NCBI RefSeq assembly: GCF_022846255.1
Contig: NZ_AP025682.1
Origin: Escherichia coli
GTDB taxonomy: Bacteria; Pseudomonadota; Gammaproteobacteria; Enterobacterales; Enterobacteriaceae
DNA length: 64,000 bases
Reading direction: 5' to 3' (one strand)
This document shows, piece by piece, positions 4,666-59,263 of this stretch (the stretch's first letter is position 1; the number at the start of each line of letters is the position of its first letter). The position numbers were made by a program, and so were the translations under genes. The notes under the pieces were generated by a model, which was given only the letters and a program-made list of their open reading frames with translations, was not told where the DNA came from and did not search any database.

Positions 4666-5792
<1,127 letters not shown>

Positions 5793-5994
5793 TTAATTCG
5801 TAAAACGTGCTACCGATCACATTAAGAAATCAGCGCTTATTTTTTCGCTCCCCGGTATTACGCAATGCGCAGCGAACTCAGGCATACATCAAGCATAGAG
5901 AGGGATTGCAGTTTGCAGCAATCCCTCTTTGCAGACCTTTAATCCGTTGACCGGAGGCGCTAACATAGCGCCTCATTTTTTTGCGGGTGATGAT

Positions 5995-24652: not shown

Positions 24653-25114
24653 TTATTTCACTTCTTTAAAACCAGCGGCTTTCATCACCAGTTCCATTTG
24701 CGCCATAGTGATACCTTTTTTGGCATCTTCAGCAGAAACGTTGATTCCTGAAATACCCTGCAGGGCTTTAAAATCCACTTTTTCCATATCAATAGTCACG
24801 TTTTCCTGCGCGTAGGTATCGGTATAGGTTAATTTTTCTTCAACACCTGCGATGTTTTTGTATTTGGCGCTTAACGGCTCAAGTGTCCTGGCGGCATCTT
24901 CTTTGGTGGTTGCACCAATGGAGGCAAATTGAATTTTGGTTTCAGAAGATTGCTTAAGCACCTTGTCACCTTTGTAGACATAGGTAATGGCAATTTCAGT
25001 GCCGTTCAGATTGGCGCTGAATTTCTTTGATTCTTCTTTGTCACCGCAGCCAGCAAGAGAGAAAACCAGAACAGATGCAACAACAAGGGAAAACAGCTTA
25101 TTGAAAGCCTTCAT
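24653..25114 (-). CDS. yehR: Lipoprotein YehR (DUF1307), 153 aa
   Basis: ORF track 24653..25126; start at MKAFNKLFSLVVASVLVFSLAGC (lipobox). Confidence 0.85.
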   Translation of the reverse strand: MKAFNKLFSLVVASVLVFSLAGCGDKEESKKFSANLNGTEIAITYVYKGDKVLKQSSETKIQFASIGATTKEDAARTLEPLSAKYKNIAGVEEKLTYTDTYAQENVTIDMEKVDFKALQGISGINVSAEDAKKGITMAQMELVMKAAGFKEVK

Positions 25115-43867: not shown

Positions 43868-44149
43868 ATGAATAAGTACTGGCTGTCAGGAATTATTTTT
43901 CTTGCCTATGGATTGGCTTCTCCCGCGTTCTCTTCAGAAACTGCCACATTAACGATTAATGGTAGGATCAGTCCCCCGACATGCAGTATGGCTATGGTTA
44001 ATGGTCAACCTCAACAGCATTGTGGTCAGTTAACGTATAATGTTGATACCCGTCATCAGGTTTCTTCGCCAGTTAAAGGTGTAACGACGGAAGTGATTGC
44101 TGCAGATAGCGATAGCAAACGTCGAATCGTGTTAAATCGCTACGATTAA
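43868..44149 (+). CDS. yehE: Small secreted protein YehE (93 aa)
   Basis: ORF track 43868..44149; signal peptide; upstream of the yeh fimbrial genes. Confidence 0.8.
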   Translation: MNKYWLSGIIFLAYGLASPAFSSETATLTINGRISPPTCSMAMVNGQPQQHCGQLTYNVDTRHQVSSPVKGVTTEVIAADSDSKRRIVLNRYD

Positions 44150-44179
44150 TTTGCCACCCTGGTTTAATTGGATTTAGAA

Positions 44180-44217
44180 AGCTTAAATCATTTACGTGAA
44201 TGATTTAAGCTTTTTTA
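44180..44217 (+). terminator. Intrinsic terminator after yehE
   Basis: Perfect 13-bp inverted repeat agcttaaatcatt / aatgatttaagct with 6-nt loop, followed by a T-run. Confidence 0.6.
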
Positions 44218-44440: not shown

Positions 44441-44983
44441 ATGAAACGTTCAATTATTGCTGCCGCTGTTTTTTCTTCTTTTTTTATGAGCGCTGGGGTA
44501 TTTGCCGCAGACGTTGATACCGGAACATTAACCATTAAAGGGAATATTGCAGAATCTCCGTGTAAATTCGAAGCAGGTGGCGATTCAGTAAGTATTAATA
44601 TGCCAACTGTACCAACTACGGTCTTTGAAGGTAAAGCTAAATACTCGACCTATGATGGTGCAGTCGGTGTAACCAGCAGCATGTTAAAAATTAGCTGTCC
44701 GAAAGAAGTTGCTGGTGTAAAACTCTCGTTGATTACCAACGATAAAATAACCGGAAACGATAAGGCGATAGCCAGTAGCAACGATACCGTGGGGTATTAT
44801 CTCTATTTAGGTGATAACAGCGATGTCCTGGATGTTTCTGCACCTTTCAACATCGAGAGTTATAAAACAGCGGACGGTCAATATGCTATTCCGTTTAAAG
44901 CAAAATACCTGAAGCTGACAGATAATTCAGTGCAATCAGGTGATGTGTTATCTTCTCTGGTTATGCGTGTGGCGCAGGATTAA
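44441..44983 (+). CDS. yehD: Fimbrial major subunit YehD (chaperone-usher pilus)
   Basis: ORF track 44441..44983; signal peptide; fimbrial subunit features; AT-rich upstream region. Confidence 0.88.
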   Translation: MKRSIIAAAVFSSFFMSAGVFAADVDTGTLTIKGNIAESPCKFEAGGDSVSINMPTVPTTVFEGKAKYSTYDGAVGVTSSMLKISCPKEVAGVKLSLITNDKITGNDKAIASSNDTVGYYLYLGDNSDVLDVSAPFNIESYKTADGQYAIPFKAKYLKLTDNSVQSGDVLSSLVMRVAQD

Positions 44984-45019
44984 TAAATAAAATTATAAAT
45001 TTTCCCAGGTAATAAACAT

Positions 45020-45050
45020 GGCCGCTATCCCCATGGCGGCCTTTTAATTT
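45020..45050 (+). terminator. Hairpin plus T-tract between yehD and yehC (partial terminator/attenuator)
   Basis: ggccgc...gcggcc stem followed by ttttaattt. Confidence 0.45.
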
Positions 45051-45063
45051 AAGAGGCATTAAG

Positions 45064-45738
45064 ATGAAAGGATTATTTGCTTTACTCATTTCTTCTATGG
45101 TCCTTCCTGCACATGCCGGTATTGTTATCTACGGGACGCGTATTATTTACCCGGCAGAAAATAAAGAAGTGATGGTGCAGTTGATGAATCAGGGAAACCG
45201 TTCTTCGCTGCTGCAGGCGTGGATTGATGATGGCGATACGTCGTTACCACCAGAAAAAATTCAGGTTCCTTTCATGTTAACGCCACCAGTGGCAAAAATA
45301 GGGGCAAATTCCGGGCAGCAAGTAAAAATTAAAATTATGCCGAATAAACTACCCACTAATAAAGAGAGTATTTTTTATCTGAATGTTCTGGATATTCCAC
45401 CAAATAGTCCAGAACAAGAAGGTAAGAATGCACTGAAGTTTGCGATGCAAAACAGAATTAAGTTGTTTTACCGGCCAGCGGGTATTGCTCCGGTAAATAA
45501 AGTGACCTTTAAAAAGTTACTGGTAAATCGCAGTGGCAATGGATTGGTGATAAAAAATGACTCAGCTAATTGGGTGACGATTTCGGATGTCAAAGCTAAT
45601 AATGTTAAAGTCAATTATGAAACTATTATGATTGCCCCCTTAGAAAGTCAGAGTGTTAATGTCAAAAGTAATAATGCAAATAACTGGCATCTGACCATTA
45701 TCGATGACCATGGCAATTATATTAGTGACAAAATTTAA
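45064..45738 (+). CDS. yehC: Periplasmic pilus chaperone YehC (PapD-like)
   Basis: ORF track 45064..45738; signal peptide; PapD-like N-terminus. Confidence 0.88.
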   Translation: MKGLFALLISSMVLPAHAGIVIYGTRIIYPAENKEVMVQLMNQGNRSSLLQAWIDDGDTSLPPEKIQVPFMLTPPVAKIGANSGQQVKIKIMPNKLPTNKESIFYLNVLDIPPNSPEQEGKNALKFAMQNRIKLFYRPAGIAPVNKVTFKKLLVNRSGNGLVIKNDSANWVTISDVKANNVKVNYETIMIAPLESQSVNVKSNNANNWHLTIIDDHGNYISDKI

Positions 45739-45753
45739 TTGCAGGAGCTGCCT

Positions 45754-48234
45754 ATGTTGAGAATGACCCCACTTGCATCAGCAATCGTAGCGTTATTGAT
45801 CGGCATTGAAGCTTATGCAGCTGAAGAAACCTTTGATACCCATTTCATGATAGGTGGAATGAAAGACCAGCAGGTTTCAAATATTCGTCTTGAAGATAAT
45901 CAGCCCTTGCCGGGGCAGTATGACATCGATATTTATGTCAATAAGCAATGGCGTGGGAAATATGAGATCTTTGTTAAAGACAACCCGCAAGAAACATGTT
46001 TATCAAGGGAAATGATCAAGCGGTTAGGCATTAATACCGATAGCTTTGCCAGCGGTAAGCAATGTTTAACATTTAAGCAACTTATTCAGGGCGGGAGCTA
46101 TACCTGGGATATCGGAGTTTTTCGTCTCGATTTCAGTGTCCCGCAGGCCTGGGTGGAAGAGCTGGAAAGTGGCTATGTTCCACCGGAAAACTGGGAGCGG
46201 GGTATTAATGCGTTTTATACCTCTTATTATGTGAGTCAGTATTACAGCGATTATAAAGCGTCCGGTAATAGCAAGAGTACATATGTACGTTTTAACAGCG
46301 GGTTAAATTTATTGGGGTGGCAACTGCATTCTGATGCCAGTTTCAGTAAAACAAATAACAATCCAGGGGGGTGGAAAAGCAATACCCTGTATCTGGAACG
46401 TGGATTTGCCCAACTTCTCGGCACGCTTCGTGTGGGTGATATGTACACATCAAGCGATATTTTTGATTCTGTTCGCTTCAGCGGTGTGCGGTTGTTTCGT
46501 GATATGCAGATGTTGCCTAACTCGAAACAAAATTTTACGCCACGGGTGCAGGGGATTGCTCAGAGTAACGCGCTGGTAACTATTGAACAGAATGGTTTTG
46601 TGGTTTATCAGAAAGAGGTTCCTCCTGGCCCGTTTGCGATTACAGATTTGCAGTTGGCCGGAGGTGGAGCAGATCTTGATATCAGCGTGAAAGAGGCGGA
46701 CGGTTCGGTAACCACCTATCTGGTGCCTTATGCAGCGGTACCAAATATGCTGCAACCCGGCGTGTCGAAATATGATTTTGCGGCGGGTCGTAGCCATATT
46801 GAAGGGGCGAGCAAACAAAGTGATTTTGTCCAGGCGGGTCATCAGTATGGTTTTAATAACTTATTAACGCTGTATGGTGGCTCGATGGTCGCGAATAATT
46901 ATTACGCGTTCACTTTGGGGACTGGCTGGAATACACGCATTGGTGCCATTTCCGTCGATGCCACGAAGTCGCATAGTAAACAAGACAACGGCGATGTGTT
47001 TGACGGGCAAAGTTATCAAATTGCCTACAACAAATTTGTGAGCCAAACGTCGACACGTTTTGGTCTGGCGGCCTGGCGTTATTCGTCGCGTGATTATCGG
47101 ACATTTAATGATCACGTATGGGCAAACAATAAAGATAATTATCGCCGTGATGAAAACGATATCTATGACATTGCCGATTATTACCAGAACGATTTTGGCC
47201 GTAAAAATAGCTTCTCTGCCAATATGAGTCAGTCATTGCCAGAAGGCTGGGGTTCTGTGTCCTTAAGTACGTTATGGCGAGATTACTGGGGGCGTAGCGG
47301 CAGCAGTAAGGATTATCAGTTGAGTTATTCCAACAACCTGCGAAGGATAAGCTATACCCTCGCGGCAAGCCATGCTTATGACGAGAATCATCATGAAGAG
47401 AAACGTTTTAATATTTTTATATCGATTCCCTTTGATTGGGGTGATGACGTTACGACGCCTCGTCGGCAAATATATATGTCTAACTCAACGACGTTTGATG
47501 ATCAGGGGGTTGCCTCAAATAATACGGGATTATCAGGAACCGTTGGAAGCCGGGATCAGTTTAACTATGGGGTCAACCTGAGTTATCAGTATCAGGGAAA
47601 TGAAACGACAGCTGGGGCGAATTTAACCTGGAACGCGCCGGTTGCGACAGTGAATGGCAGTTATAGTCAGTCGAGTGCTTATCGACAGGCTGGAGCCAGT
47701 GTTTCAGGGGGCATTGTCGCCTGGTCGGGTGGCGTTAATCTGGCAAACCGTCTTTCTGAAACGTTTGCTGTGATGAATGCGCCAGGAATTAAAGATGCTT
47801 ATGTCAATGGGCAAAAATATCGCACAACAAACCGTAATGGAGTGGTGGTATACGACGGAATGACACCTTATCGGGAAAATTACCTGATGTTGGATGTGTC
47901 ACAAAGCGATAGCGAAGCAGAATTACGTGGCAACCGGAAAATTGCCGCCCCTTATCGCGGCGCGGTTGTACTGGTTAATTTTGATACCGATCAGCGCAAG
48001 CCATGGTTTATAAAAGCATTAAGAGCGGATGGGCAACCATTAACGTTTGGTTATGAAGTCAATGATATCCATGGTCATAATATTGGTGTTGTCGGCCAGG
48101 GAAGCCAGTTATTTATTCGCACCAATGAAGTACCGCCATCGGTTAATGTGGCAATTGATAAGCAACAAGGGCTTTCATGCACAATCACCTTCGGTAAAGA
48201 GATTGATGAAAGTAAAAATTATATTTGCCAGTAA
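45754..48234 (+). CDS. yehB: Outer-membrane fimbrial usher YehB (826 aa)
   Basis: ORF track 45739..48234; start at MLRMTPLASAIVALL; size and composition typical of ushers. Confidence 0.9.
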   Translation: MLRMTPLASAIVALLIGIEAYAAEETFDTHFMIGGMKDQQVSNIRLEDNQPLPGQYDIDIYVNKQWRGKYEIFVKDNPQETCLSREMIKRLGINTDSFASGKQCLTFKQLIQGGSYTWDIGVFRLDFSVPQAWVEELESGYVPPENWERGINAFYTSYYVSQYYSDYKASGNSKSTYVRFNSGLNLLGWQLHSDASFSKTNNNPGGWKSNTLYLERGFAQLLGTLRVGDMYTSSDIFDSVRFSGVRLFRDMQMLPNSKQNFTPRVQGIAQSNALVTIEQNGFVVYQKEVPPGPFAITDLQLAGGGADLDISVKEADGSVTTYLVPYAAVPNMLQPGVSKYDFAAGRSHIEGASKQSDFVQAGHQYGFNNLLTLYGGSMVANNYYAFTLGTGWNTRIGAISVDATKSHSKQDNGDVFDGQSYQIAYNKFVSQTSTRFGLAAWRYSSRDYRTFNDHVWANNKDNYRRDENDIYDIADYYQNDFGRKNSFSANMSQSLPEGWGSVSLSTLWRDYWGRSGSSKDYQLSYSNNLRRISYTLAASHAYDENHHEEKRFNIFISIPFDWGDDVTTPRRQIYMSNSTTFDDQGVASNNTGLSGTVGSRDQFNYGVNLSYQYQGNETTAGANLTWNAPVATVNGSYSQSSAYRQAGASVSGGIVAWSGGVNLANRLSETFAVMNAPGIKDAYVNGQKYRTTNRNGVVVYDGMTPYRENYLMLDVSQSDSEAELRGNRKIAAPYRGAVVLVNFDTDQRKPWFIKALRADGQPLTFGYEVNDIHGHNIGVVGQGSQLFIRTNEVPPSVNVAIDKQQGLSCTITFGKEIDESKNYICQ

Positions 48235-49340: not shown

Positions 49341-49367
49341 CCCCCTCATGATGAGGGGGCTTTTTTT
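49341..49367 (+). terminator. Intrinsic terminator after yehA
   Basis: ccccctcat-g-atgaggggg palindrome followed by c and seven T. Confidence 0.7.
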
Positions 49368-49704
49368 AGCGATGATAAAAAATCTCACCGTCGTAGGCTT
49401 TAATGATTTTACCGTCGGTGTCGCTGATCAACACGTACGCGCCACCCATATAGGTCCAGTGCGTCCCGGCATCAGGCGCGGGCAGGTTACGTAACTGCCA
49501 CTGCTTAATGTTGTACTCATCGGTACGGTACATTTCTGGTACGGTGTCACCTGGTTTGAAATGCTTAAAGTCAGCAATGAAACTGCTTAACTCATACTTA
49601 GAAATTCCCGAGGTATTGGTCGAACCCGCGGTGGCTGGTGCGGCCCAGGCGGCACTGGTAACCAGCAAAAGCGCACCCAGCAACATCTTATTTTTAATGG
49701 TCAT
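49366..49704 (-). CDS. rcnB: Periplasmic nickel/cobalt homeostasis protein RcnB (112 aa)
   Basis: ORF track 49366..49884; start at MTIKNKMLLGALLLVTSAAWA (signal peptide). Confidence 0.85.
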   Translation of the reverse strand: MTIKNKMLLGALLLVTSAAWAAPATAGSTNTSGISKYELSSFIADFKHFKPGDTVPEMYRTDEYNIKQWQLRNLPAPDAGTHWTYMGGAYVLISDTDGKIIKAYDGEIFYHR

Positions 49705-49922
49705 AAACTCTCCACTTTGGGGATCTGTAATATCAGTCGCATATCTTTCCTGCCATACAATATAACTGACAAGCGATATTTTGTTAGTGATCCCATGATT
49801 TCGTAAAAAGTGTAAATGAAAGGATGCCCTAAAAGCATCCTTAGCGAGCAGAGAGTCAGCGGAAATAGCTGATTTAAGAATCATCCTGGGCTGAAGATAA
49901 CATGCAAGCCTAAAGGATTGAG

Positions 49923-53881: not shown

Positions 53882-54628
53882 ATGGAACAAGCGCATACCC
53901 AGCTGATTGCCCAACTGAACGAGCGTATTTTAGCGGCGGATAACACGCCGCTTTATATTAAGTTTGCCGAAACGGTAAAAAATGCCGTGCGCAACGGGGT
54001 GCTGGAGCATGGCAATATTTTGCCCGGTGAGCGTGATTTAAGTCAGTTAACCGGCGTTTCGCGCATTACGGTGCGCAAGGCGATGCAGGCGCTGGAAGAA
54101 GAGGGCGTGGTGACGCGTTCGCGTGGTTACGGCACGCAGATCAACAACATCTTCGAATACTCGTTGAAAGAAGCGCGAGGTTTTTCTCAGCAGGTGGTAT
54201 TGCGCGGGAAAAAGCCCGATACGCTATGGGTTAACAAGCGTGTCGTGAAATGTCCCGAAGAAGTCGCGCAGCAGCTGGCGGTCGAAGCAGGAAGTAATGT
54301 CTTTTTGCTTAAGCGTATTCGCTATGTCGATGAAGAGGCGGTATCGATTGAGGAATCGTGGGTTCCGGCGCATTTAATTCATGATGTTGATGCCATCGGA
54401 ATTTCTCTTTATGACTACTTCCGCAGCCAGCACATTTACCCACAACGTACGCGTTCCCGCGTTAGCGCCCGGATGCCGGATGCCGAGTTTCAGTCACATA
54501 TTCAGTTAGATAGCAAAGTACCGGTGCTGGTGATCAAGCAAGTGGCGCTTGACCAACAGCAACGGCCTATTGAGTACAGCATCAGCCACTGTCGCAGCGA
54601 TCTATACGTTTTTGTGTGCGAGGAGTAG
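53882..54628 (+). CDS. yegW: GntR/HutC-family transcriptional regulator YegW
   Basis: ORF track 53882..54628; N-terminal wHTH (ILPGERDLSQLTGVSRITVRKAM) and UTRA-like C-terminus. Confidence 0.88.
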   Translation: MEQAHTQLIAQLNERILAADNTPLYIKFAETVKNAVRNGVLEHGNILPGERDLSQLTGVSRITVRKAMQALEEEGVVTRSRGYGTQINNIFEYSLKEARGFSQQVVLRGKKPDTLWVNKRVVKCPEEVAQQLAVEAGSNVFLLKRIRYVDEEAVSIEESWVPAHLIHDVDAIGISLYDYFRSQHIYPQRTRSRVSARMPDAEFQSHIQLDSKVPVLVIKQVALDQQQRPIEYSISHCRSDLYVFVCEE

Positions 54629-59214: not shown

Positions 59215-59235
59215 AAAACCACGCGTACTTTGTTA

Positions 59236-59263
59236 CGGCTTCCCCCGGGAGGCCGTTTTTTTT
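59236..59263 (+). terminator. Intrinsic terminator after fbaB/REP
   Basis: ggcttccc-cc-gggaggcc hairpin followed by g and eight T. Confidence 0.65.

Follow-up and report, generated by a model that had tools for sequence, protein, structure and literature searches.

A conserved RNA hairpin at the 3' end of the pilin gene yehD in the Escherichia coli yeh operon: a predicted leaky terminator and mRNA stabiliser

The gap between the major-subunit gene yehD and the chaperone gene yehC of the Escherichia coli yeh fimbrial operon contains a GC-rich hairpin that is directly followed by a T-tract. The present analysis covers a stretch of 64,000 nucleotides of E. coli DNA (the window, in what follows) and related operons; it establishes that the structure exists, is widespread and is under selection, and which polarity and position it has. 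We favour, with moderate confidence, the explanation that this cis-acting hairpin at the 3' end of yehD makes a yehD-only mRNA by leaky intrinsic termination and then protects it. For every usher and adhesin, a pilus takes up hundreds to thousands of major subunits, and pilus operons must therefore break equal gene expression. The yeh hairpin would do so by setting the ratio of pilin to assembly proteins, and the unequal-expression design of the operon belongs to a known class, of which pap, CFA/I and fimA-FimR2 are examples.

Operon context and the element between yehD and yehC

Pfam matches and annotation give the gene order major subunit, PapD-type chaperone, usher and two-domain adhesin (Table 1). 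This is the order of gamma4 chaperone-usher operons, and Yeh has been placed in the gamma4 clade (PMC12778044). The K-12 nomenclature is used here, and within it the naming of yehD as the major subunit and yehC as the chaperone in the earlier note was right according to Pfam and annotation; in UPEC papers the lettering is reversed, with yehA as the major subunit and yehD as the adhesin (PMC12778044). Yeh occurs in most E. coli and has been associated with colonisation of the gut and binding of pectin, and the yeh region of the window is 96-98% identical to that of most E. coli genomes. The operon is silent in laboratory K-12. A sister operon, found in O157:H7 Sakai, has been named Yhl (PMC12778044).

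The gap of 80 nt between yehD and yehC is the only sizeable one in the operon, as the yehC-yehB and yehB-yehA gaps measure about 0-15 nt; the true start of yehB probably lies about 15 nt further in than that of the longest ORF, as in the K-12 annotation. The yehD stop codon (TAA, 44981-44983) is followed by a second in-frame TAA. Behind it comes a spacer that is poorly conserved in the alignment of Escherichia relatives and for which RNAalifold predicted no consensus structure. The Shine-Dalgarno sequence of yehC at the other end of the gap is invariant among the Escherichia relatives and takes no part in conserved pairing.

Table 1. Features of the yeh region, with positions in the window.
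Feature	Position	Strand	Basis and remarks
metG		-	start of the gene order near the operon; followed on the plus strand by mrp/apbC, yehE, yehD, yehC, yehB and yehA
yehD (K-12 name), major pilin subunit, 180 aa	44441-44983	+	ORF list; Pfam Fimbrial PF00419; RefSeq annotation of matching genomes
Spacer, AU-rich, 36 nt, yehD stop to hairpin	44984-45019	+	sequence; alignment; RNAalifold
RNA hairpin, 9-bp stem, CCCC loop	45020-45041	+	folding; covariation; RNAalifold; single copy
T-tract TTTTAATTT (U4A2U3 in RNA), directly 3' of the stem	45042-45050	+	sequence; scan; d-score
Shine-Dalgarno AAGAGG of yehC, 7 nt 5' of the ATG	45051-45056	+	sequence; alignment; RNAalifold
yehC, periplasmic PapD-type chaperone, 224 aa	45064-45738	+	ORF list; PapD_N and PapD_C domains; frame comparison with K-12
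yehB, outer-membrane usher	45739-48234 (longest ORF)	+	ORF list; annotation; Pfam
yehA, two-domain tip adhesin, 344 aa	48250-49284	+	ORF list; annotation; Pfam; PMC12778044
Operon-end intrinsic terminator after yehA, CCCCCTCA-TGA-TGAGGGGG, then CTTTTTTT	49341-49367	+	scans; d = +31.1

The hairpin, GGCCGCUAU-CCCC-AUGGCGGCC, folds at about -15 kcal/mol and stands 36 nt downstream of the yehD stop codon and 22 nt upstream of the yehC start. Its arms are GGCCGCTAT (45020-45028) and ATGGCGGCC (45033-45041), with the loop at 45029-45032. Seven of the nine stem pairs are Watson-Crick G-C or A-U pairs, and a U-G wobble is present at 45026/45035; the stem holds six G-C pairs. The adjoining UUUUAAUUU has seven U in nine positions, four of them contiguous at the base of the stem, and is at the same time AU-rich single-stranded RNA. 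A segment of 37 nt folds at -15.7 kcal/mol (z = -3.55), which only one of 200 dinucleotide shuffles equalled, and the energy of the perfect stem within the 80-nt intergenic region was reached by none of 200 such shuffles.

A loose consensus scan of 42-51 kb had the hairpin as its top terminator-like site, within a set that showed no overall enrichment (8 sites found and 9.4 expected). Stringent criteria (at least 6 bp, dG of -12 or lower, and five or more T among eight positions, three or more of them within the first four) returned nine sites on both strands of the whole 64-kb window as compared to a mean of 0.5 in block shuffles, and these include the hairpin as well as the sites after metG and after yehA. 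The hairpin at 45020-45041 is thus beyond chance, and the folding, the shuffles and the stringent scan bear out the earlier note, which had described a hairpin with T-tract between yehD and yehC at 45020-45050. The remaining stringent sites are at 24995-25021, 5954-5974, 53932-53952 and 59235-59256 on the plus strand and at 12436-12417 and 5701-5680 on the minus strand. The Yeh allele with the T-tract is present in about 4,892 of 5,426 complete E. coli genomes, and the hairpin occurs at a median of one place per genome (4,901 genomes).

The position of the hairpin bears on the annotation of yehC. In MG1655, yehC (b2110; 4927-5646 on the minus strand of the K-12 locus, L001) is annotated with 239 aa, and its start ATG extends into the hairpin's 5' arm. 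The frame that opens at the ATG at 45018 of the window reads ATG GCC GCT ATC CCC ATG GCG GCC TTT TAA and stops after nine codons, because the loop is one C longer than in K-12 (CCCC versus CCC). Matches of 66 and 67 nt suggest that E. coli genomes commonly have either loop length. PGAP places the start at 45064, which gives a protein of 224 aa with the Shine-Dalgarno sequence AAGAGG. The 239-aa form was rejected as coding, since its extension runs into the TAA in the window; the 15-aa extension is almost certainly non-coding and the MG1655 start inside the hairpin wrong.

Three further observations concern the surroundings of the operon genes. Firstly, an 18-bp AT-rich perfect inverted repeat (AGAAAGCTTAAATCATTT-ACGT-GAATGATTTAAGCTTTTT, 44176-44215) lies 27 nt past the yehE stop codon, and yehD begins about 225 nt further on. 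It resembles a terminator of yehE, or else a structured element upstream of yehD, in a region for which control by CsrA and H-NS has been reported. Secondly, the first ~44 residues of YehD (44441-44575) show a weak match to DUF2574 (E = 8e-4, under the gathering score), the family of the small upstream protein YehE (43868-44149); by this match YehE may be related to the pilin's N-terminus, for example the signal peptide and N-terminal strand. Lastly, the terminator behind yehA adjoins a convergent minus-strand ORF (49366-49884) and may work in both directions.

Conservation, strand and distribution of the hairpin

Nine versions from the Escherichia clade were aligned (the window, K-12, O157:H7, two other E. 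coli, E. whittamii, E. albertii and two further Escherichia species). In this alignment 97.5% of the stem cells are paired, versus 16-62% after a shift of the 3' partners by 1-3 columns. Two stem positions show compensatory double changes from G-C to A-U, and a third has U-G in some versions and C-G in others; this covariation sample is small (9 sequences with 3 compensatory cells) and the shuffle control only indicative. The loop diverges (CCCC, CCC, CTCC, ATTC) and so do both flanks, and RNAalifold on the Escherichia relatives gave the hairpin as the sole consensus structure. A second group of nine paralogous operons, from Citrobacter, S. enterica diarizonae and a second locus in some Escherichia, led to the same result, with one compensatory change and several G-U pairs. 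Judged from these alignments, the hairpin is under selection for pairing.

To cover more distant operons, YehC was used as a query with one genome per species, which yielded 80 loci, so that 81 were examined together with the window. A subunit-sized ORF ends just 5' of the chaperone gene in 78 of the 81. Hairpins were counted in gaps of at least 25 nt (75 loci), and only with a perfect stem of -10 kcal/mol or lower that was more stable than at least 99% of shuffles. By this count 55 of the 75 operons have a hairpin at the same position; these are 53 distinct sequences, and many of the stems are unrelated to each other. Four more loci (L041-43 and L058) have bulged stems that the perfect-stem scan missed. 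The genera with a hairpin are Escherichia, Salmonella, Citrobacter, Klebsiella, Serratia, Pluralibacter, Edwardsiella, Gallibacterium, Acinetobacter, Pseudomonas, Luteibacter and Cupriavidus, and the median hairpin of the survey has 10 bp and an energy of -17.3 kcal/mol. The intergenic gaps are also more structured than usher coding windows of the same length from the same loci (-0.36 versus -0.24 kcal/mol per nt, p = 6e-10). The T-tract is optional: 19 of the 53 distinct hairpins have at least five T in the next 8 nt, and another 19 have two or fewer. The sampled Yeh-type (gamma4-like) operons share a strong hairpin directly 3' of the pilin gene, with a T-tract that comes and goes between lineages.

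Other operons of K-12 were compared as well. The elf, yra and yad operons have strong hairpins after elfA, yraH and yadN, each the first fimbrial-subunit gene and by its position the major subunit. Behind fimA there is a weak hairpin only, and the gap behind sfmA is long and complex. Two genomes of the survey, E. whittamii (L005/L023) and Escherichia sp. E1V33 (L006/L024), each contain two YehC-related operons, one of Yhl type and a second that is ~57% identical, and in both genomes each subunit gene is followed by an unrelated hairpin of its own. A 1,980-bp contig labelled 'MAG: Flavobacterium psychrophilum' (QFQM01000522.1, L015) encodes a Citrobacter-type yeh-like operon that has exactly the hairpin arms found in C. 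werkmanii (L013); it is very likely a mis-binned enterobacterial contig.

The survey also indicates the strand on which the element acts. The plus strand folds more stably in 46 loci and the minus strand in 21 (p = 0.012). The 8 nt 3' of the stem contain on average 3.53 T, as compared to 2.25 expected from composition and to 2.08 A in the 8 nt 5' of the stem (p = 0.003). Furthermore, the stems contain G-U pairs, which favour sense-strand RNA, since on the opposite strand or in DNA they would turn into A-C mismatches. The polarity of these sequences points to a sense-strand RNA element. Both these G-U pairs and the asymmetry between the strands speak against a minus-strand RNA and a DNA-binding palindrome, and a dispersed REP/BIME repeat was rejected because there is one copy per genome. 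An Rfam scan of 43.5-46 kb at a permissive E-value gave sub-threshold chance matches only (miRNA, scaRNA and histone stem-loop).

Termination, stabilisation and alternative explanations

The hairpin has the stem of a Rho-independent terminator, with 9 bp, a 4-nt loop and an energy of -15.7 kcal/mol, and the Yeh allele also has the U-tract, which Yhl and 19 of the 53 related hairpins lack. Its d-score, calculated with the d'Aubenton-Carafa 1990 formula, is +13.5, which lies between the scores of the metG terminator (+6.1) and of the operon-end terminator. On sequence alone, the Yeh allele would be classed as an intrinsic terminator of moderate strength. The U-tract is interrupted, which suggests leaky termination. 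A scan of the gap found no promoter-like (sigma-70-like) site between yehD and yehC, and K-12 made functional Yeh fimbriae from one promoter placed upstream (Korea 2010, as cited in PMC11287998). Any termination at the hairpin would thus have to be leaky for yehCBA to be expressed. For the Yhl-type locus of EHEC, RT-PCR shows a single transcription unit (PMC11287998).

The Yhl allele (O157:H7, E. albertii, E. whittamii) is 82% identical and keeps the hairpin, which is longer by one or two outer pairs (positions 2120-2160 of the O157:H7 locus, L002; also L005, L006, L007 and L029). The stem is followed by AGCATAAATAT and the tail is AGCATAAAT, which is not a T-tract, and the d-score drops to -35. 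As the T-tract is absent from Yhl and from about a third of the related operons, termination cannot be the universal mechanism. The mark of a 3'-stabilising hairpin, a structure conserved irrespective of the U-tract, is seen both in the covariation and in the 55 of 75 operons. The conserved function across the family is therefore probably 3'-end formation and protection by the hairpin, and the T-tract, and hence true intrinsic termination, is probably an add-on in some lineages, Yeh included. Partial termination, as proposed in the earlier note, fits the terminator score, the sense strand and the position directly after the major-subunit gene, but the T-tract on which it relies is not the conserved part. 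The Term-seq tables of Adams 2021 and the TERMITe supplements have no entries for yehD or yehC, which is as expected from the silence of the operon in laboratory K-12.

We infer termination, a read-through fraction and stabilisation in the following way. RNA polymerase coming from the yehD promoter would transcribe the 9-bp GC stem and then U4A2U3, and some polymerases would release at the U-tract in a leaky, Rho-independent manner to give a short yehD-only mRNA. The remaining polymerases would read through into yehC, yehB and yehA. In whichever way a 3' end is made, through termination or through an endonuclease cut within the AU-rich tail, the hairpin would block 3'-to-5' exonucleases and the yehD segment would thereby outlive the distal segment.

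The first half of this scheme is comparable to leaky intra-operon intrinsic attenuators, which have a GC-rich 9-bp stem with a 4-nt loop and an adjoining U-rich tract, on the sense strand and past the stop codon, with a positive d-score, as in yeh. It differs from these in that the yeh U-tract is interrupted and is missing from the sister allele and from many relatives, and in that termination at yeh is predicted. The second half resembles the malE-malF REP element and the Clostridium cip-cel stem-loops, where a stable hairpin is likewise found at the 3' end of a cistron that is needed in excess. Orthologous stem-loops are retained between species although their sequences change (PMC4423207). 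The yeh hairpin is not a REP copy.

A purely post-transcriptional role, without useful termination, is the main rival explanation but rather unlikely. RNase E would then cut a full-length yehDCBA transcript within the AU-rich single strand beside the hairpin, or an end made further downstream by Rho would be trimmed back, and the hairpin would shield the 3' end of yehD from PNPase and RNase II. Several points agree with this: Yhl and 19 of the 53 related hairpins do without a T-tract, the EHEC locus gives one transcript by RT-PCR, and the tail UUUUAAUUUAAG may be an RNase E site, to judge from its resemblance to one. In addition, pap and CFA/I rely on cleavage by RNase E and on differential decay. 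In pap, RNase E splits the primary papBA transcript into pieces that differ in stability (PMC4546395), and both operons are listed as classic examples of selective RNA processing and stabilisation (Nilsson & Uhlin 1991 and Jordi et al. 1993, as cited in PMC4423207). In these chaperone-usher operons the major-subunit message exceeds the assembly-gene message post-transcriptionally. They also encode fimbriae of the pi and alpha clades, not gamma4 as Yeh (PMC12778044), and the sequences are unrelated. Moreover, pap has a papB-like upstream cistron in the same transcript, which yeh does not. A terminator-like stem-loop was reportedly found after papA by Baga et al. in 1985/1988.

The fim operon is another system with a processed pilin message. 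Term-seq places a primary 3' end at 4543708 in the fimA-fimI gap, which is the exact 3' end of the annotated sRNA FimR2 (4543674-4543708, MG1655); this end is generated by RNase E, without a U-tract, and FimR2 depends on its stem-loop (PMC9723502). As in yeh, an E. coli chaperone-usher operon here has its stem-loop in the gap that directly follows the major-subunit gene. The fim hairpin has 5 bp, folds at -7.7 kcal/mol and is not significant against shuffles, so that the yeh hairpin is much stronger. It also has a GGA loop that is bound by CsrA, and its RNase E-generated product acts in trans, whereas yeh has the CCCC loop and the U-tract. The statement in the earlier note that partial termination is the usual way for fimbrial operons to make excess major subunit was too narrow, since in pap, CFA/I and fimA, the precedents studied best, the surplus of pilin mRNA comes largely from RNase E processing and differential stability. 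Against processing alone in the Yeh allele stand the four U right after a stem of -15 kcal/mol, a terminator score like that of genuine terminators in the same window, and the family-wide T enrichment 3' of the stems, which has the correct polarity. We prefer termination followed by protection for the Yeh allele. Our literature searches, including yehD combined with terminator, did not return a description of the yeh hairpin. Those on mrkA/mrkB with terminator gave nothing relevant, and papers on F9 and the PapB family use 'terminator' in other senses.

That the element serves the translation or the 5' end of yehC is highly improbable. The hairpin would in that case insulate the ribosome-binding site, provide a standby platform or protect the 5' end of a processed yehCBA mRNA. 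The distance from the stem to the chaperone start codon is indeed tightly clustered among the survey hairpins (median 24 nt, IQR 19-27), and that from the stop codon to the stem is looser (median 13 nt, spread 2-44 nt). Such compact spacing is, however, also expected when a hairpin, its tail and a Shine-Dalgarno sequence share a minimal gap. RNAalifold gives the hairpin alone, without conserved pairing to the Shine-Dalgarno sequence or the start codon, and a role in yehC translation leaves the downstream T enrichment unexplained. A structure that hides the yehC Shine-Dalgarno sequence was also considered; the minimum-energy fold of K-12 contains a weak long-range helix of this kind, which is absent from the fold of the window and from the consensus, and it was rejected.

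It is extremely doubtful that the hairpin is the stability module of a short trans-acting RNA derived from the yehD 3' UTR. The precedent is FimR2, an RNA of 35 nt from the equivalent position in fim that needs its stem-loop for stability (PMC9723502). The sequence 5' of the yeh hairpin is poorly conserved and thus holds no conserved seed, the CCCC loop lacks the GGA motif that forms the CsrA site of FimR2, no Rfam family matches at threshold and no such RNA has been reported.

Lastly, a reading in which the element is not RNA (a DNA palindrome bound by a dimer, a REP-like repeat, a full stop combined with a separate yehCBA promoter, or a chance palindrome) is hardly tenable: the arms form a near-perfect inverted repeat that by itself would also fit a DNA site, but the element is single copy and so not REP-like, the stems of related operons are unrelated in sequence with pairing always kept, G-U pairs occur and the plus strand folds better, no promoter-like site follows the hairpin, and a chance palindrome is excluded by the shuffles, the stringent scan and the survey.

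Implications for pilin dosage in Yeh and Yhl

Yeh and Yhl offer a natural comparison, in which the U-tract is present in one and absent in the other at the same operon position, and which can serve to separate termination from RNA stabilisation. Two extensions of the favoured explanation are, together or singly, quite improbable. The T-tract may switch the element between terminating plus stabilising in Yeh and stabilising only in Yhl, and the hairpin-ended 3' UTR of yehD may accumulate as a FimR2-like RNA. Deletion of the yeh locus in EHEC is reported to have genome-wide effects on expression (PMC11287998), and a FimR2-like RNA, if it exists, could help to explain these. If the T-tract is such a switch, the Yeh and Yhl alleles would set different ratios of pilin to assembly proteins, and hence a different length or number of pili, across E. 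coli lineages.
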